A stretch of 64,000 bases of DNA. Origin: Geosiphon pyriformis uo1. Lineage: Eukaryota > Fungi > Glomeromycota. The position numbers were made by a program, and so were the translations under genes. Location of the stretch: assembly GCA_016748015.1 (NCBI GenBank), contig JAAOMT010000776.1:366305-430304 (forward strand), read 5' to 3'. Below the pieces are notes generated by a model that worked only from the letters and a program-made list of their open reading frames with translations, ran no database searches and had not been told where the DNA came from. Positions 1-52,675 of this stretch are shown piece after piece (position 1 is the first letter of the stretch; each line of letters starts with the position of its first letter).

Positions 1-702
1 TCTCTGACCCAGTTAAAGTTGAAAAAGTTCAAAACATTAGACAACCAATAAATGTTTCTAAACTATGCTCTTTTCTTGGTTTGGCTTTTTACTATCATAA
101 ATTTATTAAGAATTTCTTTAAAATCATCTTTTCTTTCAATCAACTACTCAGGAAAAATGTCAATTATTACTAAAACACTTATTAACAAAAAGCTTTTGAA
201 ATTCTGAAGGAAAAACTTGTTATTGAACCAATTCTCAAGCAACTTGATTTGGACCAACCTTTTATTCTCTACACTGATACATCTGACTATAGACTTGGTA
301 CTATTTTTTCACAAAAAAATGAAAATGGCAGAAAACATATTATAGCATATGCCAATAGATCCCTCACACCAGCAGAAAAAAACTATTCAGTTACTAAACA
401 AGAATGTTTAGCAGTAGTTTGGGCTACTAGTTACTGGGATCAATATTTTTTTGGTGTGAAATTTCTAGTAGTAACAGATCATCAAGTCTTGGTTTGGCTG
501 CATAATAAAAAGAAGCTAGAACACAAACAAATAACTTATTAGATACTTCACTTGGATAAATTTAATTATGATATTCAACACTACAAAGAAACAAATCATC
601 AAAACACTAATGCTCTCTTTAGACTTACTATCTAGTGATAATACAACTTTTCAAACCAAACCAACCTAATTATTAGTAACTTTTTCACAAACAAACATGA
701 TA

Positions 703-2015
703 ATGGACTTGGACAACTATTCTGCCTTAATGAAATTTTTGGGTAAAGGACAATATTCACTAGAATATACTCAACAACAAAGAGAACATTTGTGCAAACA
801 ATCAAATTTCTATTTGATTCACCAGAACCAGCTATATAAAAGAAATAGAAAAGATTCTAATCATTCTTAGAGAATTATCAGATTTGAAGAAAGAGAAATT
901 GTAATATACAACATGTATACTAATCCATTAGCTGGACACTTTGGAAAAACAAAAACAATTCAAAAAATTTTAGCTTGTTATTATTGGCTTACCTTAAGAA
1001 AAGATATTGCTGAATACATCAAAATCTGTAATATCTGCCAAAAAAGAGGCAAACCAAATTACAAAGAAGATATTCATTCAATCTCTGTTAGTCAACTATT
1101 TGACCAAATTGGTATAGATGTTGTTAGACCATTAATAATAACTCTTAATAGCAATAAATATATTATTACAGCTACCAACTATTTTACAAAATAAGTAGAA
1201 ACAAGAGCCACTTCAAACCAAACAGCAGTATCAATAGCCAATTTTATTTATGAAGATATTATCTGTTATTATGGGTGCCCCAAAAAACTTTTATTTGGTA
1301 GAGAAAAAGCTTTTCTCAGTACACTGGTTAAAGAACTTTGTAGAAAAATGGGAATATGTTATAAACTTTCTTCTTCTTATTACTCTCAAACAAATGGCTT
1401 AGTAGAACATCTTAATAGAACACTATGTAAAACCCTGGCCAAAACCAGTGAAAAAACAAATTTATGAGACAAAATACTGCCTTTAGCCTTGTTTGCTTAT
1501 AGAACTGTAAATCATGACATAACAAGTTATGAACTTTTTTATCTGTTTTATGAATGCATAGCAACACTACTAATAGAAATTGACATTGAAACAATACTTT
1601 TTGAAGAAATTACAATAAAAAATTACAAAAACATTTTGCAAAGAAAACTTGGTACCATTCTTGACTTCTTGGTAGAAACACAAATAATTGCTTTTAAAAA
1701 AATAAAACAGTTCTAAGAAAAGCTTAAGAAAAAAAAAATCTATAAAATACTTTCTTTAAGTATTAGTGACTTGATATTGGAATATCATTCTGACAGAGAC
1801 AATGTCTATAATAATAAATTCTCTAGCCAATAGAAAAAACTCTTTATAGTCAACAAAGTTTTGAACAATGGTTCTTATATTCTTTAAGATAATTCTGGAA
1901 CAATCTTCAATAATTGTCTTGTTCATGGTACACAACTAAAAAAATATCATAAACGACCTGATTAATTGCCTATTGTGGTAATACTAATTCAAATAATCAG
2001 CAAAAATCAAGTATA
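703..2015 (+). pseudogene. Family A integrase as a separate ORF (ATG 703)
   Basis: Starts MDLDNYSALM after the RNase H stop at 633-638; ORF fragments 913-1194 and 1489-1716; C-terminal GPF-type region. Confidence 0.85.
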
Positions 2016-2057
2016 AATAAATGTATTATTTTCAAAACAGAGATATTTTTAATCAAT

Positions 2058-2703
2058 ATGAACAATTATTTTCTGGATCAAAACATTTAAAATGTTTTCT
2101 ATACTCTCCATAAGTATTGGATTAAAAACTACCCAAATATTACTCTGACTATTGGAAAACAGATCATCATAACTAATAACAGTGGAACATATATTGTTAT
2201 TAGACCCAAGAAAACCACTACCAGAAGAGAAAAAATTGGTAGCAAAATGGATAAATATCTGTTAAAAAGTATAACAACAGCTATACTCCTATCTTCTAGT
2301 ACAATTGGAAAAACAATCTAAGAAATCTTGCCCATAGACAAAAATTTGTCATATAGAAGACAACTAAAACTCTATGGTTGCCTTGGAAAAATCATAGAGG
2401 ATATAAAACTTATGAAGAAAACAACTTCAGAGATACAGGCAGAAATTTTGGTTAGATGTTCCAAGAGTTTTAACTATTGCTAAAAAAGCCAAAACTCTAA
2501 TACAAAGATTTGGTCTCTTGGATACAAAACTCATTTTGTCTCAAGTGTTATATATCCTATTCACAAAAAACTTCAACAAACTAGTTAGCTTTGAGTTAGA
2601 TAAAACCCTTCAAATAGATTACACCATAAATAGCTTGATTTTGCAGAAGTTCAATCTCTTTAGAAAGGATAATATTATAATTGAAACTTATACTTCTTAT
2701 TAA
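2058..2703 (+). pseudogene. Family A accessory ORF-X (unknown function)
   Basis: Homologous to the intact copy at 53803-54459; ends inside the LTR (ETYTSY*). Confidence 0.8.
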
Positions 2704-8702: not shown

Positions 8703-9690
8703 TGTTACCAGTAGGATTTTAGCTATTAATTAGCATAAAATTACCCTTATAATTTCTATAATTAATTAGTATAATAATATCATTCAAATTATTATTTATT
8801 ATTTCATCAATTATCACATATTACGATTTAATTAAATAATCTAATTAGTATAACAAAAAGTAGAATGATCAAATTACACAATACCCTGAACTTTGTAACA
8901 TTCAAAAATTTGCCGAAATTTACAAAAATTTGCCGAAATTTGCCGAAATTTGCCGAAATCATGAATAGTTCACCCAAATTAATCAATAGTTCAGCAAAAT
9001 AACTTGTAGTCCATCAAAATATATCTTTAGTTTGCCGAAATTTGAGCAAAAAGAAAAAGTGCAAGTTCATAGACTAGTACTACAACAAGTTGTATAAAAA
9101 AAGAGCTTTTCTCTTCAAGAAAATGTATCTTACTTTAGATTTATCACTTAGAACCATTTCTACACACACAAAAAGAAATAAATATTAAATAATTCAAAAA
9201 ACCAAATTTTTTAAATTATTGCACTTAGAAAATCCCCAAAACCCAACTAACATTTTGAAATTGATTAGCTACCAATTTTAGTAAACCATTAGTGACTCCA
9301 GGCCTGGATAGAAAACATTCTCTTGATAAAATCCTATTTCTTTTACATTTTTTTATTTTTCTTTTCTTTTCTTATTATAATCATTAAGGTAGCCTACAGA
9401 CAAGATTTCTGTAGAAGAGTTGACTTTCACAACAAAGTAACTACACATTTTTAGTGAGCTTCTAGATGAGCAATTTCTGGAAAAAAGTTGATGTTTACTA
9501 CAATGTAACTATACAAAATAACTGGTACAGAATTGGCCATTCCACTCATAAGCCCAGCAGTTCAAATTATAGGAGATAATTTGAAGATAAATTCAGTTAT
9601 TGGAGGTTCAACTACTTCTAGAAAACGTGAATTTGCAACCAACAGACATTTACAACATTCAAGAAAAGAGACCAAAAACCTCTGGTAACA
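8703..9690 (+). repeat. Family B 5' LTR
   Basis: Direct repeat of 17617-18606; 10-bp AAATTTGCCG array at ~8906-8959; TATA-like tgtataaaa at ~9091. Confidence 0.95.
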
Positions 9691-9735
9691 TTTGGTGTTC
9701 TCTTACAGAAACAACACAGCAAAAACAACTTCAAA

Positions 9736-12700
9736 GTGGTGACCACACTAGACACAACAACTCTAAAGTATTACCAGTCAATTTACACCCACTGCAAGCA
9801 AAGATTCAACATCTCAGACGGAATTGAAGTTATCAAGAAATCAGTATACTAATATATTGAAAATCACATCAACAATTATCTTTTTAGAAATTACAACATC
9901 TCAGAAGTTAGAAGCAACCTTTACAATAATTTAGTGCACTATTCACAGTTGGAAACTGAAGACCTTAACAGTGAAACACTTGCCACTTACTTTCAAAAAC
10001 TTAATTTTAACATTATCAAGTACTGTGAAGAAACATATTCAGTGCAGTCTCAATACTCTATTGATTTTGAATCAGAAACAGAAACAAGCAACAAAGGCAA
10101 ACAAAAATTGAAGCAATACTCAAGAACCACTCCAAATACTCCAATACTACCAAAAACAACTGCCAAACATTTGCAAACACCTGAACAAAAAACCAGTGTT
10201 AAATTACCACTTTCTATTACACCATTTCCAATTTCATTTGTTCAACTACAAACACCAAGTTCACTACTTAAATGTTTCTCCAGACCAGAAGATTACCAGT
10301 TACCTAGAAATCCTACTCAACAGCAGAAACCAATATCAACAAGTGCCAATATCATTAATTACTTACAAGAAAACAAAAGTAATTATTCAGAGAGTCTGGA
10401 AAGTAAAGAAACTGAATCAAAACAAAAAAAAACTACAGAAAATGAAGAAAAAATGGCAACTGCTTACATTGCAAAAATTCCAGAATTTATTGATGAAAAT
10501 AATAATACCAGTCCTCAAAAATGGCTTGACAAAGTTCAAAAAGCAGAAGATGCAAATGGTTGGATTGCAGTAAGAATGCTTAAAGCAATTCCCTACTTTC
10601 TCCAAGAAACAGCAAGAGAATGATTTGAAAATTTAGAAAAATCATTTGAAAACTGGCAAGCATTTAAATATGCTTTCTTACAACAATTTACTAACAATAA
10701 CATCTCTATTACTCTTTGCAATTGCTTTTACAATATCAAACAAGAAACATTTGAAACTGTTATGATTTATCTTAGAAGATTTAACAAACTTCTTTGACAG
10801 ATTTAACAATTGGAAACCAATGATTATTATTCTGATGCTCAGATTCTGGACCAGTTTATAGCAGGGTTAAAAGACAAACTGATTAAAAAAATCCGCCCAT
10901 ATGCTCCAGCAGACTTAGCAACTGCCATCAGACATGCAAAGAACTATGAAATGGCTATGAAAGAAGCAAACCACACCAAACTCGTCAACCTAGCTATTGG
11001 AGAAACCAGTTCAGCAGCTGAAAAGAAGATAAATCAACTCACAAATAAGGTTGAAAGCTACTTCACAAACTAACAACAACAGCAACAACAACCACAAAGA
11101 TATCAACTCCCACAATGATGCAACCAAAACAATTTTGGATCACCCTCCAACAACCAACCTCAAAATTGTCATTATTGTGGAATTCCAGGACACTGGAAAC
11201 AAGATTGTAGGAAATTACAAAGAGACCAACAAAATAGGAATAATCAACGTTACTCTTTACCACAACAATCTTATTACCAATCTTCACCACCAATCTATTA
11301 TTCACCAAGACCACAAAATCAAAACAGTTACTATCAACCAGTTCCACAACCAATGCAGCAACAATATCAGCAACCTTTACCAATTCAGCAATATCAGACA
11401 CCACCCACTTAACAATATCAAGTACCAGCAAAAAAATTGGTTCAACATAACCAATTCACACTCCAAAATCAATTGCAGAGTAACAACAACAGACTCAATC
11501 CAAATAACCAGTTGGTTCTCCGAAATTTTGGTCAGCAAAGACCCAATCACTATCACACCCAACCCAGTTATCTTACAATACCAGAGAAATCGGATTTTCA
11601 ACAAACTGCACTTTCTGAAGGTAAAGTTGCAACACCAAGATCAAACTCTTCCAACCACACCATTCTACTAGCTCAAATTGCCCAAAATGCCAATCTGTCA
11701 AATATATTTCCATTTGAATTTAAAGCAAATGAATCACCATTTCTGCTTAGTAATGCAGCAGTCAATGAACAGAAAGCAATTACTGCTATGTACACAGAAG
11801 CTACAGTAGAAGAAAAACCCATTTGCTTAATCTTAGATAATAGATTGGCTGGAAGTATCATCACTTACTAGCTGATACAACAACTCAAACAAAACATAGA
11901 CAGACCAGCTCAAACAGTTATTGTTACAGCTGATGGTATGAAGAAGACTCCAGTAAGAGAAATTGATGATTTCCTCTTTACAATTGATGGAATCACCATT
12001 CCAGTTAAAGTTCTTGTTATGGATGCATCCCAATACTAAACTCTAGTCGGAAATAATTGGCTTCTCAAGGCCAATGCAAACCTGAACTGGGAAACTCAAG
12101 AACTTAAAATCTCATATCAAGGACAATATATCATAGTACCTGCAACCTGTGGTATCTTTAACAAATGATCAGAAAAAGCTCCAGTATTTGAATTTGAAGA
12201 AGAAAAGAAAATACCATTTACTGAAACCTACATGGCTCTTGGATCACCATCCAATTGGGCTGAGGAAACAGAACAAGAGATTTTCAAAGAATCAAGAGGA
12301 TGGAAAAAAGTTAGATATTTCACACCAGAACCATGAAAAGAACCACCATATATTTCACTAAAATGCAAAAATTGCAAAAAGAAGCTTTCATCAATGGGAG
12401 CATGTATTTTTCCAGAAGAAAAATATGAAACTCGTATCTGTTACTTTTGCAAAGCATGCTATAGAGAACAATTTGGATCTCCAAAAAGAAGTGAAAAATG
12501 GAACAACACACCTTGCCTTACATATAGAGATATGTTACCAGAAGAATGCAACTGGATTGATATTGCAATGAAAGGAGAAGTATGTGATCAAACATGTCAA
12601 TATGCTTTATCAATTTCGGAAAAAGTCAGAAAAGGAACATCATTTGATGCAGCATACAACAGTGCTCTCAATAAACTTTACTACTACCCTTATGATGCTG

Positions 12701-15339
12701 AAATGATTTTTGACCTAGCAATGGCATTGATCAATAGAGCCACCCAAGAAGATGTCCGCCAAATGAAAGAAGCTGAATATATTGAGTATACCATGGAATT
12801 AGCTGGATTTAATTATGAAGATAAAGTAGAAACCTACCACCAAATTGCAAACCACACATATCCAACCAAAGAAGCTCAAATTCAATGATTAGAGCAAATA
12901 AACATTTAATTGTGTGAAGAATGTGTTATGCCTTGTGATGACCAATGGTGTTTAGAATGTTATGCTCTTAGTATTCCTCTGCCAGATGAGAATGATGAAA
13001 ATGAAATCGAATTTAGAGTATTTGAACTAGTAGAAAAACTACCAACCTCCCCTATCTATCTTCTTGAAAAGCAACCACCTCTACAACTTAAATATTTTGA
13101 CAACCATGGCCAAGGAATTAGACCAGAAAAAGCACACGAAATTGATGCTAGATATGATCTAAAATACCCAGAAAAAGATACTTTGGTTCTTTAACCAAAG
13201 TCCTTGACAAAAATCAATCTCAAAATTGCTCTTGAAATTCCACCAGGAGCAATGATGCAAATTGCCTTCAGATCATTATTGGCAAGCAAAGGAATCAATA
13301 TTAGAGGAGAAGTTATAGATGCAGAATACACTGGAGACATTACCATCATGTTACAAAATGAGACAGACAAACCATTCAAAATTGAACATGCTGAAAAAAT
13401 TGCTCAAGCAATTTACTTACCCTTAATCAACATTTCGAGTTTACAATCAGTAAACAACAGAGAACAATTGGGAAAAAGTAAAAGAAGAACTCAAGGTTTT
13501 GGTTCAACTGGACAATTTACAGTTCCAGTAAACATAGCTCTTAATACACAAAATGAATCTCACCAGATTCTTCAACTTCTCCAGCCAATTACCATTTCAC
13601 CTTTTGGAGAACATCACGAAATTTACACTTGCTCAAAACCCACCACTACACAACAAATCTTTGAATCCAATGAACAAATCTGTTTAAAGCATGAAATCTC
13701 AATTCCAAACGTTTATATTCCCAAAGGAATGAAAAAATTTTGAGTTATATTCTACAACCTCAATAATTATCCTATTGTCTTATTAAACAAACTAGAGATT
13801 GAAATCATACACAGCAATATTTTTCAAGATGAAAACCCTTAAATTGTAAGGCACACTCTACTCCCAAATCCAAATATCATTCCCACCACTGAAAACTACT
13901 ATCTTGTGGAAGAAAAACTCTCTCGTATCAACATGGGTCCCTTAGAACCTCAACAACAAAGACAATTGAAACAATTGATAGCTGAATTTGCAAATATATT
14001 TGCAAAAGACAACAATGACTTGGAAAAAACGGACATTGTTCAACATCAGATCTATACAGGAGATGCTCCACCAAAACATCAACAAGCTTATTGAGTGCCA
14101 CCTGCTAGCCACCAATTCATCAGAGAAGAGGTCCAAAGAATGCTTAATAACAGATTAATTTAATCATCAAGAAGTTCTTGGGCCTCACCAGTAGTTTTAG
14201 TTAAAAAGAAAAACGGAAAAATCAGATTCTGTATTAATTATAGACAACTGAATAGTGTTACAATTGGAGATGCCTACCCTCTTCCAAAAATTGATAACAT
14301 GCTAGATGCTCTAGGAAAAGCCAAGTTTTTCTCAACTTTAGACTTGGAAAGTAAATACTGGCAAGTCAAAATAGACCCAAAAAACCGACCCAAAATAGCA
14401 TTTACCACCCAAGAAGGAAACTATGAGTTCAATGTTATGTCTTTTGAACTCTGCAATGTACCAGCAACATTTCAGTGACTCATGGATGTTGTATATGAAG
14501 AGCTCTTGTGGCAATCAGTAGTTGTCTATCTTGATGATACTAATGTATACTCACCAAACTTTGAAGCCCACCTCATTCACCTGTGAAAAGTTTTTCAACA
14601 ATTATGGAAAGTAGGATTAAAGTTAAACATTGAGAAATGTTACTTTGGAAAAACAAGCTTGATCTTTCTTGGATACATAGTTAGTAAAGATGGAGTCAAA
14701 CCAAATTCAAGAACAATCAGTGCTGTCAAAAACTTTCAAACCCCCAGAAATACCACAAAACTAAAAGGATTTGTAGGATTAGCCTCTTACTATCGAAAAT
14801 TCATAAAAGGATTCTCAGAAATTGCCAAACTACTCAATTATCTTATCAACAAAAACGTGCCATACAAATGAACTGAAGAACAACAAAAAGCTTTTGAAAC
14901 TCTCAAAACAAAATTGACAACAGCCCCAGTTCTTGTTTATCCAGACTTCAACAAATAGTTCCAATTAGCCACTGATGCTTTACACATAGCATTTGGTGCC
15001 ATCTTATCACAATTAGATGAAAATAGACAAGAACAAGTCATTGTCTATGCTAGTAGAATACTCAAACCAACAGAACTAAAATACAGCTCAACTGAATTGG
15101 AAGCTGCTGCAGTCATCTGGGCTCTTAAACATTTTCAACAATATCTGAAAAATAGAAAAGAATTTGACATAATAATGGACAACATTGGCCTCAAATGGTT
15201 CAATAAAAAGAAAATTGAACAAAGTGCCAAACAGTCTCAATGGAATGACTTCCTAGCAGACTACAGATATATTGTACACCACAAACCAGGAAAACTACAT
15301 ACCAATATTGATAGCCTCTCAAGAATAAGACAAGATTAA
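9736..15339 (+). pseudogene. Family B Gag-PR-(Cys-rich insert)-dUTPase-RT-RNase H polyprotein in a single frame, interrupted by point-mutation stops
   Basis: ORF fragments 9934, 10810, 11437, 12394, 12910, 13204, 13906, 14659 and 15097 share one frame; CCHC CHYCGIPGHWKQDC at ~11167; PR LILDN(S)R(G); YLDD at ~14527; RNase H ends DSLSRIRQD*. The start position is approximate. Confidence 0.9.
13120..13512 (+). pseudogene. Trimeric dUTPase domain within family B pol
   Basis: Five motifs in order: DARYDL, RSLLA, EVIDAEYTG, KIAQ, RRTQGFGSTG; one stop at 13192. Confidence 0.93.
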
Positions 15340-15397: not shown

Positions 15398-16783
15398 ATG
15401 GATCCCAGAAATTACAGCAATCTTAAAAATTATTTGGAGACCCTTACCATGCCAGAAAACTGGTCTCCAAGTAAAAAACATCGTTTACAACACCAATCAA
15501 AACAATATTTCATACACCAGAACAAAATCTATTATAAAAATTACAGAAACCCAAACCAACCACTCAGATTAGTACAAGAGAATGAAAAAGAAACAATTTT
15601 ATACAACATGCACACAGATTTGTCTTCAGCACACTTGGGAAGAGATGGAACAATTCAAAGAACCCTTGAACATTACTTTTGGCCTTACATGCAAAAAGAC
15701 ATTTGACAATATGTAGAATTTTGTAATAGTTGTTAAAGAAGAGAAGGAATTTGCCCCACAGAACCTTTAAATCCAATCAAAGTTGGACAATCTTTTGACA
15801 GAGTTGGAATTGATTTAGTCAGACCATTACCTATCACAATCCAAAAAAATTGTTATATTGCAGTAGTAGTAGATTATCTTACCAAATGGCCTAAAGCTAG
15901 AGCCATTCAAAGAGCAGATGCAAAATCAGTAGCAAATTTCATCTATGAAAACATTATTTGTAGACATGGATGTCCAATTGAACTTTTATCTGATCAAGAA
16001 ACACATTTTGTGAACAACTTGATACAAGAAATTTGTGAATGATTCAATGTCAAAAGATCTTTATCATCACCTTATCACTCTTAAACAAATGGACTTGTAG
16101 AATGTTTTAACAGAACATTGTGTGAATCTCTAACCAAAGTCTCAACAGACTTTGAGCAGGAATGGGATATCTTTATTCCATCAGTGTTACTAGCATACAG
16201 AATGCTAAAACAAGATACTATGAAACACACACTATTTGATCTTACTTATGGAAAGACAGCAACATTACCAATTAATTTCACAATGGAAACATACCCAGTG
16301 CAACCAATCAATAAAGAAAACTTTCAAGAAACATTCCAAAGAAGAGCCTACACTCTTTTCAGTACACTGGAAGGAAAAAAAAGGATAGCAGCAACTCACA
16401 TTGAACATTCTCAAGCTCAACAAAAAGAAAGACATGACAACAAATTACCACTCATATTTAACAAATTTAAAGTTGGAAATAAAGTTCTCTTACACAGAAC
16501 TAAGGCTGAAAAACAATGGAATGGAAAATTTGAAAACAAATGGGATGGACCATTTTATATTCACGAAATTCTAGGCAATGGATCATACAAGTTAGGACTT
16601 GATGACAAAATACTAGCAAAAGTTGCACATAAAGACAGATTGAAACATTATCATTCCAGAAACAATTCTGAAACATTAATTCCACAAATTGGTACACATT
16701 CCCCTTTAATTAATCCTGAAGATATTCTCCGAAATTTAGAATCAATAATTATAATAGAACAACAACCAAACTTGAACACTTAA
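15398..16783 (+). pseudogene. Family B integrase as a separate ORF with its own ATG
   Basis: MDPRNYSNLKNYL start; H..HLG..CNSC; VGIDLV; SDQ; TNGLVE; WDGPF; +1 frame relative to RT/RNase H; no chromodomain seen. Confidence 0.9.
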
Positions 16784-17135
16784 ATTTTACAATAATTTTT
16801 TAATAAAAACACAAAGATGAAAAATAGTAAATAATTACAAAAAACACCCAAACCCAAAAACAAATAAAAACCTCATATCCAAAAATAATTTTCTTTATTT
16901 TCCTTTTTCATAATTAGTCAATTTTATTATAATTATTCTCCGAAATATTCAACAAATATCTCAAAAGTTAATATTAGTCTTGAAAACACTTTCTGACTTA
17001 TCCATAACGATTAATAGAAGTCAAATTAATTACATTTAGAAAGAAACCACAGCCCCAGTAGTAAATCATCCACAGAACTATCACCCCTATAGAAAAAAAA
17101 CAAGAAGTCACTTTGAAAATAAATTACCAAGACTT

Positions 17136-17636
17136 TTGAAGCAAGCATTGGAAGAAAATCTTTTAATTGCTCCTATTGACATTCCACCAAATGCTACAAT
17201 ACAACAAAAACTTCTACTACTTCTCAATGAACAGAACAATAAACACACCTCTATCTATAAATACTTTCACATTGGAAAGACACTTTATGAACGAAAACTG
17301 GAACTTGAAACAACAAATTTTACTCCTAAAGCTATACAAAAACAAATTCATAATGAATTCAAAACAGCAGCTGAACCAACTAACACTTGCTACAAACTTA
17401 GAGCAGCTTTTAGACTCTATGATTTGTTTAATACTTGTGAAAATGTTCTACAAAATCCAATACTACAACCAATAAAAGTTCAATACATTGGCAAACTCAC
17501 AGAACTAAAATTTCAACAATTTTTAGACCAGATTACTTCAATTATTTTGGATCACTATCTCAATATTACAGATAGTGCTTGGACTTCAACAGAGCTTAGT
17601 TTTGAAGAGGAGATTATGTTACCAGTAGGATTTTAG
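17136..17636 (+). CDS. Family B accessory ORF-X; the true start probably lies upstream and is decayed
   Basis: 166-codon open frame running through the PPT and 20 nt into the 3' LTR; no transmembrane segment seen. Confidence 0.65.
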   Translation: MKQALEENLLIAPIDIPPNATIQQKLLLLLNEQNNKHTSIYKYFHIGKTLYERKLELETTNFTPKAIQKQIHNEFKTAAEPTNTCYKLRAAFRLYDLFNTCENVLQNPILQPIKVQYIGKLTELKFQQFLDQITSIILDHYLNITDSAWTSTELSFEEEIMLPVGF

Positions 17637-18606
17637 CTATTAATTAGCATAAAATTACCCTTATAATTCCTATAATTAATTAGCATAATAATATTATTTC
17701 AAATTATCATTTATTATTTCATCAATTATCACATATCACGATTCAATTAAATAATCCAATTAGTATAACAAAAAGTAGGATGATCAAATTACACAATACT
17801 CTGAACTTTGTAACATTCAAAAATTCGCCGAAATTTACAGAAATTTGCCGAAATTTATAGAAATTTGCTGAAATCATAAATAGTTCATCCAAATTAATCA
17901 ATAGTTCAGTGAAATAACTTGTAATCTATCAAAATGTATCTTTAGTTTGCCGAAATTTGAGCAAAAAGAAAAAGTGCAAGTTCATAGACTAGTACTACAA
18001 CAAGTTGTATAAAAGAAGAGCTTTTTTCTTCAAGAAAATGTATCTTACTTTAGATTTATTACTTAGAACCATTTTTATACACACAAAAAGAAATAAATAT
18101 TAAATAATTCGAAAAACCAAATTCTTTAAATTATTGCACTTAGAAAATCTCCAAAACCCAACTAATGTTTTGAAATTGATTAGCTACCAATTTCAGTAAA
18201 CCATTAGTGACTCCAGGCCTGGATAGAAAATGTTCCCTTAATAAAATCCTATTTCTTTTACATTTTTTTTATTTTTCTTTTCTTTTCTTATTACAATCAT
18301 TAGGGTAGCCTACAGACAAGATTCCTGTAAAAAAGTTGACTTTCACAGCAAAGTAACTACATATTTTTAGTGAGCTTTCAGATGAGCAATTACTGGGAAA
18401 GAGTTGACATTTACTACAATGTAACTATACAAAGTAACTGGCATAGAATTGGCCATTCCACTCATAAGCCTAGCAGTTCAAATTATAGGAGATAATTTGA
18501 AAATAAATTCAGTTATTGGAGGTTCAACTACTTCTAGAAAACGTGAATTTGCAACTAACAGACATTTACAATATTCAAGAAAAGAGACCAAAAACCTCCA
18601 GTAACA
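17617..18606 (+). repeat. Family B 3' LTR
   Basis: Direct repeat of 8703-9690. Confidence 0.95.
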
Positions 18607-24446: not shown

Positions 24447-24713
24447 ATACAAAGGACTTCATGATAAAACCTTCAGATAAAACAATACCTTCAGATATTA
24501 CCAACAACATTATATTAATTGAGCACTAAATTACAGATTTGTTATTTATTCCAACAACCAAGTAAACACCTATAACATTTGGTGCTCCCTGTGAGATATA
24601 ATTTAACAGAAAACCAGTACCAACAACAACCATGCAAGAAAATGGCAGACCAAGAGAAAACAAGAGAAAATCATTTAGGATTTGCAAAATCCTTATTTCA
24701 CCATTACTTTTGA

Positions 24714-27011: not shown

Positions 27012-29748
27012 ATAATAATGGACTTGGACAACTACTCTGCCTTAATAGAATTTTTGGGTAAAGGACAATACCCACCTGAATACACTTGACAACAAAGAGA
27101 ACATTTATGCAAACAATCAAATTTTTATTTGATTCACCAGAACCAATTATACAAAAGAAACAGAAAAAATCCTGACCACTCCCAGAGAGTCATCAGATTT
27201 GAAAAAAGAGAAATTATAATATACAACATGTATACTAACTCATTAGCTGGACACTTTAGAAAAACAAAGACAATTCAGAAAACTTTAGCTTACTATTATT
27301 GACCTACCTTGGGAAAAGACATTGCTGAATACATCAAAACCTGTAACATCTGCCAAAGAAGAGACAAACCTAATCACAAAAAAGATATCCATCCAATCTC
27401 TGTTGGTCAATTATTTAACAGAATTGGTATAAATGTTGTTAGATCTTTAACAATCACTCCTAATGGCAACAGATATATTATCACAGCTACCAACTATCTT
27501 ACAAAGTGGGTAGAAGCAAGAGCCACCTCAGACTAAACAGCAGTCTCAATAGCCAATTTCATTTATGAAGATATCATCTGCCATCATGGCTGCTCCAAAA
27601 AACTTTTATTTAATAAAAGAAGAGCTTTTCTTAATACACTGGTTGAAGAACTTTGTAGAAAAATGGGAATACATCATAAACTTTCCTCCTCTTATTACTC
27701 CTAAACAAATGGCCTAGTGAAACATTTTAATAGAACATTATGTGAAACCCTAGCCAAAACCAGTAAAAAAACAAACTTATGAGACAAAATACTGCCTTCA
27801 GTTTTGTTTGCTTATAAAACTGTGAATTATGACATAACAAGTTATAAACCTTTTTATCTGCTTTATGGATACATGGCAACACTACCAATAGAAACTAATA
27901 TTAAAACAATACCCTTTGAAGAGATCACAATAGAGAATTATAAAAACATTTTGCAAAAAAGACTTAGTACTATTTTTGACTCCTTAGTAGAAGCACAAAT
28001 AATTGCTTTTGAAAAGATAAAACAGTTCCAAGAAAAGCTTAAAAGAAAGAAAACCTATAAAACACTTTCTTTAAATATTGGTGACTTGGTATTGGAATAC
28101 CGTTTAGATAAAGACAATGTTTATGGTGATAAATTTTCTAGCTAGTGGAAAGGACCCTTTATAGTCAACAAAGTTTTGAACAATGGTTCTTATATTCTTC
28201 AAGATCAATCTGAAACAATCTTCAATGATTGTTTTGTTCATGGTATATGACTCAAAAAATATCATAAACGACCTGATTGGCTGTCTGTTGTGGTAATATT
28301 GACTTAAATAATTAGCAAAAATCAAGTATAAATAAATGCACTATTTTCAAAACAGAGGTATCTTCAATTGACATGAACAATTATTTTCTGGATCAAAACA
28401 TTTAAAATATCTTCTATACTCTCTATAAGTATTAGATTAAAAACTATCTAAATGCTACTCTGACCATTGAAAAACAAATCACCATAACTGATAACAGCAG
28501 AACACATACTGTTATTAGACCAAAGAAAACTACTACCAAAAGAGAAAAAATTGGTAGTAAAATAGATAAATATCTGTTGGAAAGTATAACAGCAGCTATA
28601 CTTCCACCTTCCAACACAATTGGAAAAACACTTCAAGAAATCTTACTCATAAATAAAAACTTGTCATATGGAAGGCAATTAGAACTCTATGGTTGTCTTG
28701 GTGAAATCATAGAGGATATGAAACTCATGAAGAAAACAACTTCAGAGATACAGGCAGAAATTTTGGACATTATACGATTAGATGTCTCAAAAGTTTTAAC
28801 TATTGCTAAAAGAGCCAAAACTCTAATACAAAGATTTGGTCTTTTGAATACAAAACTCATTTCGCCTCAAGTATTATATACCTTATTCACAAAAGACTTC
28901 AACAAACTAGTTAGCTTTGAGTTAGATAAAACCCTTCAAATAGATTACCCTATAAATAGCTTGATTTCACTGGAGCTCAATTTCTTTGAAGAGGATAATG
29001 TTACAGTTAAAACTTATACTTCTTATTAATTATCACATGTATTAGCCACTGATGTCACATAAATTAGCCACTCTATTTTTAGTAAGTGATCATTGACCTG
29101 ATCAATGACCTGACCATTGACCTGATCATTGACCTAATCATTGACCTGATCAATAATCTGATCATTAACCTGATCATTGACCTGATTATTGACCTAGTCA
29201 TTGACCTGATCATTGACCACTTTTGACAGCTATATAAGCAATAAATTTCTTAGCTGTAGAAAAACATGAAAAAATCAAAGAAATAAAGAAATAAAATAAC
29301 AACTTCATCTCAATTCTTCTCTTATCACTAATTTCTCTTTCCCTACTTTCAAGTATCTGAACATCTTAAAAATAAAAAATTACTTGTTGGTTATTTCTTA
29401 CTCTTTTCCTGAAATGTGTAATTGCAACATTTGGAGATTATTGAATAAAACATGACTGAAAAGCACATCTGATACTTAATATTGAATTCTAAGAGTGCCA
29501 ATGTGAGGCATAGAATTATACCAAGTGTAATTATTTGTTGACAGTATGGACTATTCTTCTATCTTTAAATTCCCCGGTTATCTTTGAAAAGTATAATGAC
29601 TGAGATATTTTATGAGACTGATCTCACACATTGAATTCTTACTCATTCAATTTGCTCTTTGAAGTTGAATTCCCCTTTGATTATTTCCATCACCTTACAA
29701 TTCCATTCTTTTTTGCTATCCGTTAGCTTGTTACTCCAATCTGTAACA
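27012..29748 (+). mobile_element. Family A 3' half (integrase, ORF-X, 3' LTR 28999-29748), copy X'
   Basis: ORFs 27309, 27804 and 28577; LTR termini tgttacag...gtaaca. Confidence 0.92.
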
Positions 29749-45103: not shown

Positions 45104-47651
45104 TGTTACAGATAATTATTTGGGGTCTCAAAGCAAATAACAAACCCATAACTTGGTGCTCAATTGATATAATGTTGTTGGTAATATCTGAAAATATTGT
45201 TTTATCTAAAAGTTTTATAGTGGAGTCTTTTGTATAATGGACAGAGATTCAGTGGTAATAGTTTTATCTGTAGCTTTCCAAAACTGCAGTTTTGTCAATT
45301 TTTTTTTCAGCATGATGGCCAGTGTTTTTCCTAGTAAGCTAACCTCAATTGAGTGTCCTACCCTTATTTCTGGGTCTTTTATTAGTGCTATATCTTGACA
45401 TCAGTACCCCACGCATTAATCCTTAATAAAGTTAGTAATAACAACAATTAAGACAAGAAAATAAAAAAAATAACATAAAGAAATGAGCCAAGACAATGCA
45501 CAAGTTAGTATCTGTTAATAGCTGTAATCAAGAGCTATTGTTCCAGTGTGATTAAGTATTGATAAATGGAAGAGTGATTATATTTTCAAACAAATGACAA
45601 TAACATAAATTTGAAAAATTGGAGAAATTTTTTATTTATATAATTCTATTTCAGTTGATAGCAACTATTCTTGAAATAAGGATTAATAAATAGAGAAAAA
45701 AGAGGATTGTTCTAAATTAATAAAACTCTATTGAATTCTCCAGGAATTACTTTTTCTGCTTTTAACACTTTTGCTATATATATATAATTTATGTTATATA
45801 AGATTCTGTACATTCGTGAACAATGTGCCATGATTTCTTAAGCAATGTTTATATTACTGAGCAATATGTCTGTAATTTCTGACAATGTGCTCATTGCTGA
45901 ACAATGTACCATAATTTTCTAACAATGCTTCACATTGCTGAGCAATGTGTTCATATGCTAAATACTATTCTCTTATTGGTCTATTTTCCCTATCTGTTTT
46001 TCCTACTATTTTCTTGTATTCTTTTTCTATGAGTAATATTATTCCCTCCTTTAATATTGAGCTCCTGCAAAATCTTCTAAATTTTTTTTTTGTATTAATA
46101 TTATTGCTGTAATTTCTATTACTATTTGTAAATCTAATTTTATACATAACTAAGGTTTTTAACTATAGTAGTCTGTTCAGAATATCAATTTCAAATTTTG
46201 TATTTGTATTATGTACATGTTCAAACATAATGCCCTTATTATTATCACTGAATTTAGTTAATTCTTGCTCTATTGTAAGATCTAAAAGTGTGATATATTG
46301 TTTAATGTTTGATGTGGAGTTTGAATTTGTTGTTGGCGAAGTTTAAATTGTCATTGTCATTAGCAGAGTTTGAATCATTGTTGTCATCAATGGAGTTTGA
46401 ATCATTGTTGTCATCAGTGGAATTTGAATTGTTGCTGTCATTAGTGAAGTTTGAATTATTGTTGTCATCAGTGGAGTTTGAATCGGAATTAAATTCCAAT
46501 TCCAATTCCAATTTGTTTTTGCTAATTGGCTCTTCTTCGAATATATGATACATGAAAGTGGATTGTGACTACATCCCAATATTTTGACTCAGGCCCATCA
46601 GATAAATTTTGCTGATTTATTGGTACAGTGAGAATTAGGTTTAATTGGGTTATCAGAGATAAGTTTTCTTGTATGATTGCAGAATTTGGAATTTATCGGA
46701 CTTCGAATGTTTGGGTTTTTGAATAATTTCTGGAGTTTGAATTGCTAGAGGTTTAACAAGTTTTATTGACAGTAAGTTTTTTTGTACAATAGTGGAGTTG
46801 AAATTATTGGGTTTTAAATGTTTGGGTTTTTTTGAACAATCGGTTTTTGAATAATTAAAGTTATAATTTAATGAGTTTTAACAAGTTTATCAAAGGTAAG
46901 TTTCGAATATTCGGGGTTTTAATGATTGGGTTTTGAATAAACAGAGTTTTAATTTAACAAGTTTTTAATGAATTTATCAACAGTAAGTTTCAAATGTTTG
47001 GAGTTTTAATGATCAGGTTTTGAATAAATGGAGTTTTAACAAATTTATTAATAGTACATTTCGAATATTCGGGGTTTTAACAATCAGGTCTTGAATAATT
47101 GGAGTTTAATTTAATCAGTTTTTTAATGAATTTATCAACAGTAAGTTTTGAATGTTTGGGGTTTTAATGATTGGGTTTTGAATAAATGGAGTTTTAATTT
47201 AACAAATTTTTAACGAATTTATTAATAGTAATTTTTGAATGTTCAGGGTTTTAATGATCGGGTTTTGAATAATCAGAGTTCTTAATTTAATGAAGTTTAA
47301 TGAATTTATCAATGGTAATTTTCAAATGTTCAGGGTTTTAATAATTGGGTTTTGAATAATCAGAGTTTTAATTTAACAAGTTTTTCAAAAATAATAGTCA
47401 AATAAGGATTTCACAAATCCTAAGTGATTTTTCTTTGTTTTTTCTTGGTCTGCCATTTTCCTGCATGGTTGTTGTTGGTACTGGTTTTCTGTTAGATTAT
47501 ACCTTACAGGAAGCACTAAATGTTACAGGTGTTTACTTGGTTGTTGGAATAAATAACAAATTTGTAATTTGATGCTCAATTAATATAATGTTGTTGGTAA
47601 TATCTGAAGGTATTGTTTTATCTGAAGGTTTTGTCATGGAGTTCTTTGTAT
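45104..47651 (-). mobile_element. Family D non-autonomous LTR element, second copy
   Basis: Reverse complement of 24447-27011 with the same junctions; 3' LTR 45104-45400. Confidence 0.82.
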
Positions 47652-48407
47652 TGTTATAGTTGAAACTTATACTTCTTATTAATTATCACATGTATTAGCC
47701 ACTGATGTCATATAAATTAGCCACTCTATTTTTAGAAAGTGATCATTGACCTGATCAATAATCTGACTGTTGACCTGATCATTGACCTAATTATTGATCT
47801 GATCAATGACCTGATCATTGACCTGATCATTGATCTGATTATTGATCTGACCATTGACTTAATCATTGACCACTTTTGATAGCTATATAAGTAATAAATC
47901 TTTTAGCTGTAGAAAAGTATGTCAAAAAATTAAAGAATTAAATAAATAAAATAACAACTTTCATCTCAATCATTCTTTTATCACTAATTTTCCTTTCCCT
48001 ACCTTCAAGTATCCAAATATTTTTGGGATAAAAGATTACTTGTTGGTGTTTACCTGCCTTTTCCTGAAATGTGTAATTGCAACATTTGGAGATTATTAAA
48101 TAAAATGTAACTGAAGAGCACATTTGATACTTAATATTGAATTCTAAGAGCGCCAATGTGAGGCATAGAATTATACCAAGTGTAATCATTTGTTGACAGT
48201 ATGGACTATCTCTCTACTTTCAGATTCCCCAGTTACTTTGAAAAGCATAGTGACTGAGATATTTTATGAGACTAATCTCACATATTAAATCCATACTCAT
48301 TCAATTTGCTCTTTGAAATTGAATTCTCTTTGATTATTTTCATCACTCTACAAACCTGTTTTTCTTTGCTATCCATTAGCTTGTTACTCCAATCTGTAAC
48401 ATAAAAG

Positions 48408-48424: not shown

Positions 48425-51376
48425 TTGTCAAAATCCACTCTGTTTCTTATTGTATGAGTGATTATTTATACCTGTCACAACAATCAGAAGAACACTTTAA
48501 AGCACACAACAAAAATGATCTAGACTTTATTGAACTCAATTCTTTGTCCTCCTGCTTGATTTGCTTCCCCATTGAAAATCAATTCAGTAGACAATTCCAA
48601 AATTTTTGGAACTGGTTCTTAAACAAGAATTTAGCTGAAACCTACACAGCCTATACAACTTATTACTTTGATTAAGCTTATTTTGAAGACAATTTTGAAG
48701 AAAAAAATAACAGCATCAATTAACTTTTATACTCCACAATCTTTGAACAACAGCCCTCTGATTTTGAATATCTGAATCATCTAATCTACATCTGAATTAC
48801 TGCTTATCAATCAACTAAAACTCCTCTTGAAATAGAAGAAGAAAGCTATCAAACTGCTCCTGTTTTTGATCTCTTTTTAAATGAATCAGAACACTCTACA
48901 CAAACAGTTACACCTGAAACAATGGCTCAAAACTCTCTGCAACAAAACATTCTGATCGCCCTCCAAGGTATACAGACTGCTTTAGGGTGAAAAAACAACA
49001 CTCCATTACCATTATTCAGAAGTAATGCCCAAGATCCAATTGAATGGCTGAATAATTTTGAGAAAGCTGCCACAGCAAACCAATATGATAACAAATACAA
49101 GTTCCAAATTGTTGGTGGCTACCTCCAAGGCTCTTCTGCTACTTGGTTCTCACAAAAAACCAATGCCAATGCTCAACAAAGAATCATTAGATGGGTACCA
49201 ACAAATGCTGGAGAAGACAACACTTTTTTCACTACCTGGTTTGAAACAAAATTCAGAACCCCAATATTAATATCCAAATGGCGCATGGAACTGAAAAGAA
49301 AAACCCAAGGCTCTGGAAAAGTAGTGACTAAATATGCCAAAGCTATCAGAAAACTAATCAAACGTGTAGATTCTGAGAGAAACTAAACAGAAGAGCAAAA
49401 GATTTACTCCTTTACAAAAAGATTGAAAATTGATCTATCATATGCTCTCTGGCCTCTCTTGGCCCTCAAAGACAATCCCACAATAGATATGGCCATTGAA
49501 TTAGCTCAAAGAATTGAAGATAACCAAAGAATACATTTGGAATCCACACTTTCAGTCTTTGCTTCTGCTCCTATTTTGGCTTCTGCTCCCTAAATGACTG
49601 TTATTTCTTTTACTGCCCAAATTTAAGACCCAAATGAACAATTAATAGATAGACTTACAGCTAATTTTGCCCAGCTATTAGAACCATTGGCCCAAGCAGT
49701 TAGAGAGAATCAACAACTCCAAAGACCCAGATTTGAACTCTGTTTCAATCAGCTCCAACAACCACCATATCAAAGACAGCAAAATTGTGGCCCATCTATG
49801 TGCTATCATTGTGAATTAACTAGACACTTCTCAAGAGATTGCAACAATCCTCCATTGTCCCCTCTAGTTCCCAAAAATAATGACAATCAAAACAACAGAC
49901 TTATCAACAACAATGCTCCTAATCAAAGACCTAATCATGCCAACATCAATTTTTTTGGAGAGAATCCCCTAGTGGAAGCCACAGTTTATCAGCCTTTAAA
50001 CTGGTAGGCGCATCTCCAAAGGGTGAGAGTGCAAGCCAACCAGAAGAAAACCCCTTTTTTGCTTTTAACTTAACTAATGATAACTATAATATAGACAAAC
50101 TGGCAATTAACACCTTAGAATCAACCAGAAAAAAAAAGAAAGCCAAGATTGATTTCATACTGGATTTCAATAAAGCTTCCACATCAACAGCTGATAACAA
50201 TAAACCACCAAAAGCCAAAGTTTTTAAGAATCCTTCAAAGTTAGAACTCCCAGAAATAGTGCAAAAATTTGGTCCTTATTCTGTTGTCAAAAATCTCATG
50301 GAAACTCCTGCACACATTACCTTTGGCCAGTTAATAACTCATTCCCAATTCAGAAAAGACCTTTGCAAATCTTTGATTTCTAAGAAAAAGACACTAAAAA
50401 CCAACAAGTGCCTATGCCAAGCTGGATTTGCTAACAACAGCAATGTCACCTCTCTCATTTGTAAGGCCCAAGTGGCTGGTTATTTCATTGATCTAATCCT
50501 GGACAGTGGATCATCTGTTAGTGTCATTGCCAAATACTTCTTAGAAACAATTGGCAGAAAGATTGATAAACTATCTACACAACCAATGACCAATGTACAT
50601 GGTGACAAGAAAAAAAATCTGGGCATAGCCAAAGCTATTTCTGTCCGAATCAATGACATCAGTATTGAAATTAACATGGAAGTATCTAAAGCAAAAGAAT
50701 ACACCATAATAGTTGGCAATAAATGGCTTAAGAAAGCAAAAGTCTTGCTCGATTATGAACTCTGTGAACTGACCATCAGATGTGATGAGAAACCCATTGT
50801 GGTTAAGTGTCGTCATTGGACAACTCTTCTAGTACTCAAACAAAGCCAAGAAGAAAAGCAATCAGATAAGTCAGATAATGAAGAAAGTGATAAAGAAGAT
50901 GACAAAAAAAAACTGCTGAACTTGTCTACACTATCTTTACCAACAACAGCAAACCATTAGATAATGTCAAAGCAGATAAAAAAGAAATTATGGTAAATGA
51001 CAAGCTGATCTGCTGGTCTTATTATGATATCCTTAGAAGAACCATTGACCAAAAGCCTGGCAAGAAAGCCAAATACAGTTATTGGTGGCATGGCTCTTAT
51101 GCCAGATGCTGGTGCAATAAATTTTTGTATTCTCCCAGTAATGAATGCAAATCTTGCCTGATCTATTACAAAGATTGGGAACCAATCAGTGTGATACCCA
51201 GAGAAGAAATAAAAAAAGTACAGAAGTCCTTTGAGAATAAACCACCTGAGATCCAATTACTTGTTGTAGAACATAGAGAACCTTCCCCAGAAAAAAAAAA
51301 AATAGATATTGAAAATCTATTGGCTAGAAACAGCCCAGTTATCTCAAAAGAAGATAATACCCCTGGATGAACTCAT

Positions 51377-52675
51377 GTGATACAACACACCATCACAATC
51401 AAAGAAACTCATCCCATATATTTGAAGCCTTATCAATCCAATCGTCATAATGATGAGTTTATCAAGAAAGAGATAAACAGGATAAAAGATTTTGGATTCA
51501 TACAAGAAACCAAGAGCAAATGGGCTTTTCTAGTTGTAGTAGTATCCAAGAAAAGTGGAACTCTACACTTCTGTGTTAACTACTGCCAATTAAATGCCAT
51601 CACTATAAGAGACATATACCCACTCCCCAAAATTGATGCAATGCTAAACAAATTCAATGGTGCTGCTTTCTTCTCAACTATTGACTTAACTGCTGGATTC
51701 TGGCAAGTAGAGATGGATTCAGAAAGCAGAAAGAAAACTGCCTTCATTACCAAGTATGGCATCTACGAATTCATGGTTATGTCTTTTGGTCTTACAAATG
51801 CCCCTTCCACTTTTCAATGTCTAATAGACAAGATGTTTAAATTAGTAAAAGAAAACTTTGTTCTAGTTTACTTGGATGATATAATGGTATACTCAAAAAC
51901 CTGGGATGAACACCTTGAACATTTGCAAAAGGTTTTTGACCTGCTCAGGAATGCTGGCCTTAAGATTAATCCAATCAAATCTTTCTTTGGATGCCAATTC
52001 ACCCAGTTTTTTGGACATCTTATTACAAAAGATGGAATTTTCCCTAACTCAGCCAAAGTTGAAAAGGTTCAAAACATTAGACAACCAATGAATGTTCCTG
52101 AACTACACTCTTTTCTTGGTTTGGCCTCTTACTATCACAAATTTATCAAGAATTTTTCCAAAATTGCCTTTCTTTTCAATCAACTACTCAAGAAAAATGT
52201 CAATTACCACTGGGGCACACACCAGCAAAAAGCCTTTGAAATCCTGAAGGAAAAACTTGTTACTGAACCAATTCTTAAGCAACCTAACCTGGACCAATCT
52301 TTTATTCTCTACACTGATACATCTGGTTATGGACTTGGTACTGTACTCTCACAAAAAGATAAAGATGGCAGAGAACATGCTATAGCATATGCCAGTAGAT
52401 CTCTTACACCAGTAGAAAAGAACTATTCAGTAACTGAACAAGAATGCTTAGCAGTAGTTTGGGCTACTAGCTATTGGGACCAATATCTTCTTAGTGCCAA
52501 ATTTCTGGTAGTAACAGATCATCAAGCCTTAGTTTGGCTGCATAATAAAAAGAATCTGGAACATAAATGGATAACTCGCTGGATACTCCATCTGGATGAA
52601 ATTGACTATGATATTCAATACTGCAAAGAAGCTAATCATCAAAACATCAATGCTCTCTCTAGACTTACCATCTAG
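51377..52675 (+). CDS. Reverse transcriptase-RNase H portion of family A pol (open fragment)
   Basis: 432 aa; [38 protein letters not shown]. Confidence 0.92.
   Translation: MIQHTITIKETHPIYLKPYQSNRHNDEFIKKEINRIKDFGFIQETKSKWAFLVVVVSKKSGTLHFCVNYCQLNAITIRDIYPLPKIDAMLNKFNGAAFFSTIDLTAGFWQVEMDSESRKKTAFITKYGIYEFMVMSFGLTNAPSTFQCLIDKMFKLVKENFVLVYLDDIMVYSKTWDEHLEHLQKVFDLLRNAGLKINPIKSFFGCQFTQFFGHLITKDGIFPNSAKVEKVQNIRQPMNVPELHSFLGLASYYHKFIKNFSKIAFLFNQLLKKNVNYHWGTHQQKAFEILKEKLVTEPILKQPNLDQSFILYTDTSGYGLGTVLSQKDKDGREHAIAYASRSLTPVEKNYSVTEQECLAVVWATSYWDQYLLSAKFLVVTDHQALVWLHNKKNLEHKWITRWILHLDEIDYDIQYCKEANHQNINALSRLTI

Follow-up and report, generated by a model that had tools for sequence, protein, structure and literature searches.

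Two divergent families of Ty3/Gypsy-type long terminal repeat (LTR) retroelements in Geosiphon pyriformis uo1 encode their integrase in an open reading frame (ORF) of its own, which follows the stop codon of Pol and begins with its own ATG. Both families were found in a 64,000-nt stretch of contig JAAOMT010000776.1 (positions 366,305 to 430,304, forward strand), referred to as the window at its full length, in which the junctions between Pol and integrase were re-read in three copies of family A and in one family B element. The window DNA is AT-rich (CpG observed/expected 0.11) and dense with nested LTR elements, and all copies are heavily mutated with C-to-T stops throughout. The same split occurs in intact relatives, and it is very probably functional and not a result of decay. 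We lean towards reinitiation of translation behind the Pol stop as the way in which integrase is made.

Integrase junctions of the two families

In family A, the reverse transcriptase (RT)-RNase H frame ends at a stop common to all three copies (TGA 636-638, TGA 52676-52678 and TAA 55821-55823 on the minus strand), in agreement with an earlier note on this DNA. Copies 1 and 2 possess an additional TAG one codon before the common stop. The third copy has CAG at this site, and CAG rather than TAG is the majority at 52673 in the contigs of run X1 by depth (37482/48438). The spacers of copies 1, 2 and 3 comprise 64, 64 and 65 nt, which confirms the length and the 1-nt difference within the family that had been reported, and they lead to ATG 703, 52743 and 55755 (minus strand). 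The deduced N-termini MDLDNYSAL (copy 1), MDLNNYSVL (copy 2) and MDLDNYSAL (copy 3) correspond to the MDLDNYSALM-type start described in the note. One further ATG is present in the spacer of copy 1 (697) and in that of copy 2 (52737), in frame with the integrase ATG and two codons upstream of it; the corresponding codon of copy 3 is ACG. A stop closes the integrase frame upstream of the ATG, at a distance of 33 nt (copies 1 and 3) or 12 nt (copy 2). Run X1, which probably derives from the sample of the window itself, contributed approx. 3600 contig pieces that cover the family A junction, and no indel was listed among them at a frequency of at least 10%; the comparison also comprised 96 substitution rows. 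Runs X2 and X3 contributed no such pieces. A 42-nt GT-AG candidate intron at 635-676 was rejected, as its removal leaves the RNase H frame unchanged and fails to connect it to the integrase. The family A features are:

6..638, plus strand: RT-RNase H end of copy 1; stops TAG 633-635 and TGA 636-638, TAA 639-641 next
639..702, plus strand: spacer of copy 1, 64 nt with 2 G; integrase frame interrupted by a stop; 26 nt ahead of the ATG, a branch-like CTAAT with TAG
703..2016, plus strand: stand-alone integrase ORF of copy 1 (MDLDNYSAL...), decayed, with in-frame stops
2058..2703, plus strand: ORF3 of copy 1 (MNNYFLDQ...), decayed, frameshift near 2450; reaches the 3' LTR by way of the purine tract
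about 2669-3414, plus strand: 3' LTR of copy 1
47649..48401, plus strand: 5' LTR of copy 2
51371..52678, plus strand: RT-RNase H of copy 2, 434 amino acids (aa) open; stops TAG 52673-52675 and TGA 52676-52678
52679..52742, plus strand: spacer of copy 2, 64 nt
52743..53204, plus strand: 5' part of the copy 2 integrase (MDLNNYSVL...), truncated by an inverted LTR fragment
55821..56618, minus strand: RT-RNase H end of copy 3; TAA 55821-55823, then TAG and TAA
55756..55820, minus strand: spacer of copy 3, 65 nt, no ATG; TTG at the position of the TAG of copies 1 and 2
54507..55755, minus strand: integrase ORF of copy 3; single frameshift near 55440
53803..54459, minus strand: ORF3 of copy 3, 218 aa from its ATG, open into the 3' LTR
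27018..28322, plus strand: family A integrase without a spacer of its own; duplicate at 43793-45097 (minus strand)

Family B is represented by one full-length element with LTRs (8703-9690 and 17617-18606) that are 93.7% identical. Its flanks, ATAT and ATGT, differ by one base and are a candidate target-site duplication. As the note had stated, a stop at 15339 is followed by a 58-nt spacer and by ATG 15398 (MDPRNYSNL) in another frame, and the integrases of both families start with MDxxNYSxL. No indel was found across the 5.6 kb of Gag-Pol or the 1.4 kb of integrase, which places the frame offset at the junction alone. The integrase frame is open for 69 nt upstream of the start and reaches the last RNase H codons. 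A stop in the integrase frame within the spacer, which had been claimed as well, is thus present in all three copies of family A but absent from family B, and a frameshift is therefore formally possible in the latter. Because Gag-Pol of this element carries 22 decay stops, the originality of its terminal stop cannot be judged from the window alone; the family B junction is known from this one copy and from relatives. The features of family B are:

8703..9690, plus strand: 5' LTR, with the candidate primer-binding site next
9691..15339, plus strand: Gag-protease-dUTPase-RT-RNase H in one frame, no indels, 22 in-frame decay stops
13195-13740, plus strand: dUTPase, between protease and RT
15337-15339, plus strand: terminal Pol stop TAA
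15340..15397, plus strand: spacer of 58 nt with 1 G, without ATG or predicted structure; open throughout in the integrase frame
15398..16783, plus strand: integrase ORF (MDPRNYSNL...) with H2C2, rve and SH3 domains, +1 frame, 4 in-frame stops
17040..17636, plus strand: open part of ORF3, no ATG found in it; end inside the 3' LTR
17617..18606, plus strand: 3' LTR

Conservation of the split in relatives

A search with the family A integrase, which admits proteins of 239-762 aa only, gave 394 near-length homologues. In 105 of the 120 matches listed, a start consisting of one or two methionines followed by D, E or N was aligned with the window methionine; it was found within 25 residues in 6 and was absent in 9. 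Because this search is limited in size, two further tests were run, one on the DNA of the loci and the other on RT-side homologues.

RNase H was found upstream of integrase in 41 of 85 metagenomic loci. All 12 loci that combine an upstream RNase H with an integrase at least 39% identical to the reference integrases, a threshold set after the data had been seen, are split, and 9 of the 12 contain a full-length open integrase ORF. Below 39% identity, 23 loci are fused and 6 are split, namely the intact L038 and five apparently decayed ones. The distant split loci flagged by the script (L042, L044, L052, L062 and L068) were excluded from the trees; inspection of two of these five, L052 and L068, revealed no start methionine at the integrase position.

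On the RT side, 80 of the 120 long RT-RNase H homologues of family A listed are at least 45% identical over at least 380 residues. Among these listed matches, 71 of the 80 close proteins lack an integrase: 39 of the 71 end within 25 residues after RNase H, and 27 run more than 100 residues into another domain. The nine proteins with integrase comprise three from outside the clade, five gene models of Rhizophagus clarus and P0520. The five R. clarus models delete the last RNase H motif, a defect shared by P0123 and P0124. In P0520, an intact RNase H end continues into integrase. This genuine fusion is nested among split elements and may possibly be a secondary re-fusion.

The close relatives with a species name belong to Rhizophagus clarus, R. 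irregularis, Cetraspora pellucida and Gigaspora margarita; no close relative was found in viral contigs. The lineage of multi-cistronic LTR elements with stand-alone integrase postulated in the note, and the conservation of stop and ATG that it had proposed as a check, are both supported by these intact relatives at the level of DNA loci and of RT-side proteins.

Decay of old copies as the cause of the stops and frame offsets would suit window copies full of C-to-T stops and the single copy of family B. This explanation is largely refuted by intact relatives with the same split. Moreover, family B is free of indels apart from the junction offset, and the junction pieces of run X1 contain none at 10% or more. 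Decay is hardly credible as an explanation.

Another possibility is that an ordinary Pol-integrase fusion is restored at the junction, be it by an intron, by a frameshift or by read-through. RT-RNase H is joined to integrase in seven gene models at NCBI (P0123, P0124, P0483, P0489, P0502, P0530 and P0532), which belong to Rhizophagus clarus and Cetraspora pellucida; no stop separates the family B integrase frame from the RNase H end, and P0520 is a continuous fusion within the clade. However, the seven models omit the last RNase H motif (DALSR-type) together with the first 3-24 integrase residues, and their joins differ between close relatives (P0124 versus P0530/P0532). Judged from the protein models, this suggests that the joins are gene-finder introns placed across the stop. 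The tandem stops of family A, the integrase-frame stops in most spacers, the three frame offsets and the invariant methionine would also be purposeless in a restored fusion, which we consider very unlikely.

Phylogeny of split-integrase elements

In a FastTree of RT-RNase H sequences, 14 of the 15 split rows fall into one group with a support of 92, and P0123 and P0124 are the sole others inside. The free search of IQ-TREE on RT-RNase H left the split clade unresolved, and the bootstrap had not settled. A tree forcing the 16 rows together, a group named after the FastTree result, had a likelihood 10.9 units higher (approximately unbiased test, p-AU 0.64). The integrase FastTree united every one of the 29 stand-alone proteins sampled with the same 14 loci in one group with a support of 93. 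Two rows that lie outside this group are termed Ginger1-like on account of their OTU and Ulp1 domains. In a 100-row RT FastTree, the split group is part of a polytomy with a fused lineage, and the resolution of deep branches is weak. P0216, P0224 and P0236, in which integrase precedes RT, fall outside the clade. The grouping of split-integrase elements in the RT-RNase H and integrase FastTrees agrees with the expectation that they form a clade, although the backbone is weakly resolved and the fused P0520 lies inside.

L038 is split and intact, with a 278-nt spacer and an MN start, and it branches outside the main clade in every tree. It may represent an independent origin of the split, and the data are also compatible with a single origin of this layout. 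RT and integrase of the window elements group among Gypsy-type sequences; as the trees were built without curated named reference elements, a named clade is not assignable.

Spacers and integrase start codons

The near-absence of G in the spacers of both families, another observation of the note, was confirmed against same-size windows of their own elements. The spacers contain 1 G in 58 nt (family B) and 3 G in 64 nt (family A copy 2), and equally low values occur in 1.5% and 0.4% of such windows, respectively. With 3-20% G in the spacers of relatives, the G-poor spacer is a family trait and not a rule of the clade. The window spacers of 58-65 nt are predicted to be unstructured (0 to -2 kcal/mol).

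Spacer lengths at the junctions range from 0 to 727 nt and all three frame offsets are represented, which indicates that no fixed fusion is kept. The context of the integrase start codon is favourable, with a purine at -3 in 24 of 27 junctions and a G at +4 in 23 of 27. The second residue of 105 integrases is D in 62, N in 25 and E in 18 cases; we take this Met-D/E/N start to be the NatB acetylation pattern of true N-termini. In 13 spacers shorter than 200 nt, one ATG was observed as compared to 13.2 expected. ATG is the most strongly depleted of all 64 triplets there, and none of 5000 shuffles was as low. Copy 3 represented family A in this test, and four long spacers and one overlap were excluded.

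Termination-reinitiation as a putative mechanism

Read from the arrangement of stops and starts, integrase appears somewhat more likely than otherwise to be produced by termination-reinitiation on one polycistronic RNA, which would encode Gag-Pol, integrase and the small ORF3. Ribosomes would terminate at the Pol stop, where the Gag-Pol frame ends after RNase H, yet remain bound to the genomic RNA and resume translation at the first AUG that follows, to give a separate integrase. They would scan over unstructured spacers of 30-190 nt, in the manner proposed for LINE-1, or restart directly where Pol stop and integrase start overlap. The output would be stepped in the order Gag > Pol > integrase > ORF3. 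In one sub-lineage, a conserved hairpin before the AUG would assist initiation.

Several junctions are arranged in a way that fits such coupling. The integrase start overlaps the Pol stop in L024, and in L026 the Pol stop, an 83-aa ORF, an 85-aa ORF and integrase are chained with overlapping ends. Gaps of 3-4 nt separate Pol and small ORFs in L006, and in L005 the integrase stop and the ORF3 start overlap in AUGA. Precedents of reinitiation are the ORF1-ORF2 junction of LINE-1 with its 63-nt spacer, SART1, fungal victoriviruses and hypoviruses, and TAV-driven reinitiation, which bridges a few to 700 nt (excerpts of PMC5972666). As a side observation, L026 and L006 are turned into four- or five-cistron elements by small ORFs of 67-85 aa (L026:903-1399 and L006:2493-2781), which form a chain from Pol to integrase and overlap or abut at their ends.

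A number of points weigh against termination-reinitiation, besides the nested fusion P0520. Without a dedicated element or factor, reinitiation after an ORF of 1500-1900 codons is normally inefficient (excerpts of PMC5972666), and none was identified for the window families. The four long spacers (278-727 nt) contain 3-12 ATGs, which plain scanning would not cross; the longest, in L016 (727 nt), has 12 ATGs, mostly of very short ORFs. A structured hairpin directly before the AUG in nine loci is contrary to simple scanning. In termination upstream ribosome-binding sites (TURBS) of the type found in caliciviruses and influenza B, UGGGA is located shortly upstream of the stop and the start lies within a few nt. 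UGGGA was found no more than 100 nt upstream of the stop in just 1 of 13 junctions, and with window spacers of 58-65 nt the junctions differ from the TURBS type. Finally, ATG-free leaders with a good Kozak context would suit a capped subgenomic mRNA equally well, and a branch-like CTAAT with a TAG 26 nt before the ATG occurs in copies 1 and 2 of family A and is lost in copy 3.

The latter points lead to an alternative that we judge improbable but worth serious attention, namely that integrase and ORF3 are separate genes on subgenomic RNAs of their own, which arise from an internal promoter, by leader splicing or as a stabilised 3' decay fragment, with the spacer as 5' untranslated region. Foamy virus Pol is translated from its own spliced RNA. 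Leaders that are ATG-free, unstructured and in good start context agree with this, as does the putative acceptor in two of the three family A copies, and long spacers crowded with short ORFs (L016) would be bypassed more easily. Splicing of extra sense ORFs in plant elements is exemplified by Bagy2 (excerpts of PMC7264820). On the other hand, the spacers of L010 and L020 contain no AG, the sole AG-type site of the family B spacer is AAG at -3, and the acceptor is gone in copy 3. Overlapping stops and starts and chains of abutting ORFs would have no role if each ORF had its own RNA. Moreover, no spliced retro-copy was found within the window; the 60115/60120 deletion in the copy at 56610-62525 was rejected as a trace of splicing, since it lacks GT-AG ends.

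A covarying hairpin in one sub-lineage

Seven loci contain a two-helix motif of 39-41 nt located a few nt before the integrase ATG. It consists of an outer helix, an 11-nt purine bulge, a 6-bp inner helix and an 8-nt loop, and a possible 3-bp pairing between bulge and loop would form a small pseudoknot. In the alignment, 94.9% of the cells are paired, compared to at most 47% in slid controls, and two-sided changes occur in 7 of 14 pairs. None of 500 shuffles reached a covariation as high. With a model built from the seven loci, L029 and L086 were subsequently detected at E of about 1e-14, as was a variant in L003; over all nine loci, the motif lies a few to approx. 35 nt upstream of the ATG. 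The hairpin loci are:

L002:586-623
L005
L008:4463-4502
L012, L018, L019 and L027
L029 and L086, found with the model
L003, variant

Where Pol is visible, it carries an extra Cys/His-rich C-terminal domain in the hairpin loci. L086 lies in a contig assigned to a bacterial genome bin, probably a contamination. The nine loci gave no motif match in Rfam 15 at E up to 5, and the hairpin pattern had 0 matches in viral and prokaryote genome contigs.

The hairpin would also be expected if the spacer, through this structure in the sub-lineage or through the unstructured A/C-rich tract in the window families, recruited ribosomes independently of Pol, by internal entry, or if restart depended on a trans-acting factor such as a TAV-like ORF3, an explanation that we regard as unlikely. 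The covarying structure before the integrase ATG in nine loci and the L003 variant speaks for internal entry. TAV-driven reinitiation tolerates a few to 700 nt, which matches the spacer range of 0-727 nt (excerpts of PMC5972666). The window families, however, are devoid of the hairpin: the best window match (E 0.09) lies outside both of them.

ORF3

A third ORF follows integrase and extends through the purine tract into the 3' LTR in both window families and in most relatives with enough sequence. ORF3 sites are:

window 2058-2703
window 17040-17636
window 53803-54459 (minus strand)
window 61194-61847
L002, L004, L005, L008, L012 and L016

The ORF3 family comprises 489 clusters at 50% identity. 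Its product of approx. 140 aa is soluble-looking and not env-like, and an all-helical domain is predicted with a pLDDT of 95.8. The ORF3 profile matched 11 loci, all of them near relatives and none of them fused, and gave no match in the window at a domain E of 0.01. Pairwise profile comparison of the window ORF3s with the family yielded weak matches (E 8e-4 for family B and 0.018 for family A), so that homology appears likely but not firm. No consistent family was found in Pfam, no match under E 0.2 among sequences of solved structures, and no match at E 0.001 with Foldseek in PDB and BFVD. VIA returned generic helical repeats with a best Z of 5.1, and Atlas matches of at most 0.94 shared few features.

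The occurrence of ORF3 profile matches in near relatives and in none of the fused loci would fit a TAV-like restart factor. ORF3 was, however, undetected in L028 and L038 despite downstream sequence, and no homology to TAV was found. As ORF3 matches no family or fold, the analogy to TAV is only positional, and a role in reinitiation or in packaging of integrase is speculation.

Other features of the window and of relatives

The spacer-less integrase units of family A (27018 and, on the minus strand, 45097) were considered as spliced retro-copies. This was rejected because the LTR of an unrelated element ends 6 nt before the ATG; the unit is a composite with an inserted element and is duplicated in the window. 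The inserted element (24440-27011, with a copy near 45104-47651 on the minus strand) is a 2.6-kb non-coding element with LTRs of approx. 135 nt, an 87-nt tandem repeat and the same primer-site tract as family A. Together with the family A integrase it forms a 5.8-kb composite that is present twice, 89.7% identical.

At the gag/pro overlap of family A, protease is in the -1 frame relative to gag, and a TTTAAAC just before the gag stop, which we take to be a -1 frameshift heptamer, is likely the frameshift site. Its positions are:

49995-50001, plus strand
58920-58926, plus strand
33231-33237, minus strand

In family B, Gag and Pol share one frame. Its dUTPase has counterparts in several relatives of the window elements. 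Cys/His-rich inserts of unassigned kind are located between protease and RT in the window families (59745-60110 and 12337-12990); in relatives, inserts of 300-580 aa lie C-terminal to RNase H (L008:3500-4441, L016:4950-6705, L002, L012 and L027). Gag contains a long N-terminal extension with a C-x2-C...FWNWF motif (57325-57700, L004:3157-3783 and L008:6801-7439), which is kept in distant relatives. Other repeats of the window (19569-20141 and 40709-41437, both minus strand) encode a cellular-type RNase H and a domain resembling an RNA recognition motif and are probably LINE-type elements.

Comparison with known systems

Fusion to Pol is taken as the way in which LTR retroelements control the dose of integrase and package it. 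A successful clade without this fusion shows that it is dispensable and raises the questions of how ribosomes gain access to a second and third cistron after an ORF of 1500-1900 codons and how free integrase finds the cDNA. Candidate routes are binding to Gag or RNA in the particle, ORF3, or entry after uncoating. The split probably also accounts for mis-annotation in the genomes of mycorrhizal fungi, where gene finders place introns over the stop. For bicistronic reporters in fungi, it provides short junctions of natural origin and a hairpin with covariation.

The window elements resemble Ty3/Gypsy elements (Metaviridae) in their direct TG...CA LTRs (approx. 750 nt in family A), the purine tract before the 3' LTR and the order protease-RT-RNase H-integrase, and they contain the Pfam domains Retrotrans_gag, RVP_2, RVT_1, RT_RNaseH, Integrase_H2C2, rve and SH3_Tf2-1. 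A TGGTG-type tract after each 5' LTR is a candidate primer-binding site. A dUTPase between protease and RT as in family B is known from Ty3/Gypsy, including dUTPase-bearing fungal and rotifer elements (excerpts of PMC6431247). In contrast to canonical members, integrase lies outside Pol with its own start, and a conserved ORF3 runs into the 3' LTR. Ty3/Gypsy integrase is processed from Pol (excerpts of PMC5911963 and PMC4427930). Integrase inside Pol is a typical layout of the group and not a taxonomic criterion, and the elements, which agree with Ty3/Gypsy in their LTRs, domain order and phylogenetic grouping but not in integrase placement, are a Ty3/Gypsy variant with a stand-alone integrase.

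We found no account of a Gypsy clade in which integrase is initiated separately in the full-text literature, represented in part by excerpts (including PMC7947760, PMC2836005, PMC5972666, PMC6431247, PMC5911963, PMC4427930, PMC11075540, PMC5737381, PMC7264820 and PMC2774666), with most subscription papers and Repbase/GyDB outside this scope. Lokiretroviruses, considered as a possible precedent, do not encode integrase separately (excerpts of PMC7947760). Only tentatively, and as a rather improbable picture, do we propose a large, old and undescribed clade of fungal Gypsy elements. These would have given up the Pol-integrase fusion, be polycistronic (Gag-Pol/integrase/ORF3 and sometimes more ORFs) and use stop-restart aided by a new class of RNA structure, possibly with ORF3 as a reinitiation or packaging factor, and their YPYY integrase would be a living intermediate between LTR elements and Ginger1.

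Extra sense ORFs that lie between pol and the 3' LTR are similar to ORF3 in position and orientation, but the known elements that carry them keep integrase in Pol (excerpts of PMC7264820). Gmr1-like Gypsy elements have integrase upstream of RT, whereas it is downstream in the window elements.

The junctions of LINE-1 ORF1-ORF2 and SART1 likewise connect long ORFs by a short spacer (63 nt versus 58-65 nt) or an overlap (excerpts of PMC5972666). These are non-LTR elements, however, and their upstream ORF is far shorter than a Gag-Pol of 1500-1900 codons. Coupling is demonstrated for LINE-1 and SART1, and we infer it for the split-integrase elements. Victoriviruses, hypoviruses and TAV of cauliflower mosaic virus share with the clade a polycistronic RNA, overlapping or abutting ORFs and RNA structure near the junction. 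They are RNA viruses or pararetroviruses, and the hairpin of the clade lies between stop and start and not upstream of the stop.

Ginger1 and the YPYY-type Gypsy integrases provide a further parallel, a free-standing integrase of approx. 420 aa with Y/F-P-Y/F-Y/F before the zinc finger (excerpts of PMC2836005). Scored as worded in the excerpts of that paper, the motif positions were occupied among 88 integrases by Y/F12 in 83, P19 in 59, F/Y37 in 84 and Y/F45 in 84. Unlike Ginger1, the window elements possess direct LTRs and an upstream RT, lack terminal inverted repeats as well as OTU and Ulp1 domains, and their integrase ends after SH3. The split layout offers a plausible path between the integrases of Gypsy elements and the transposases of Ginger1.

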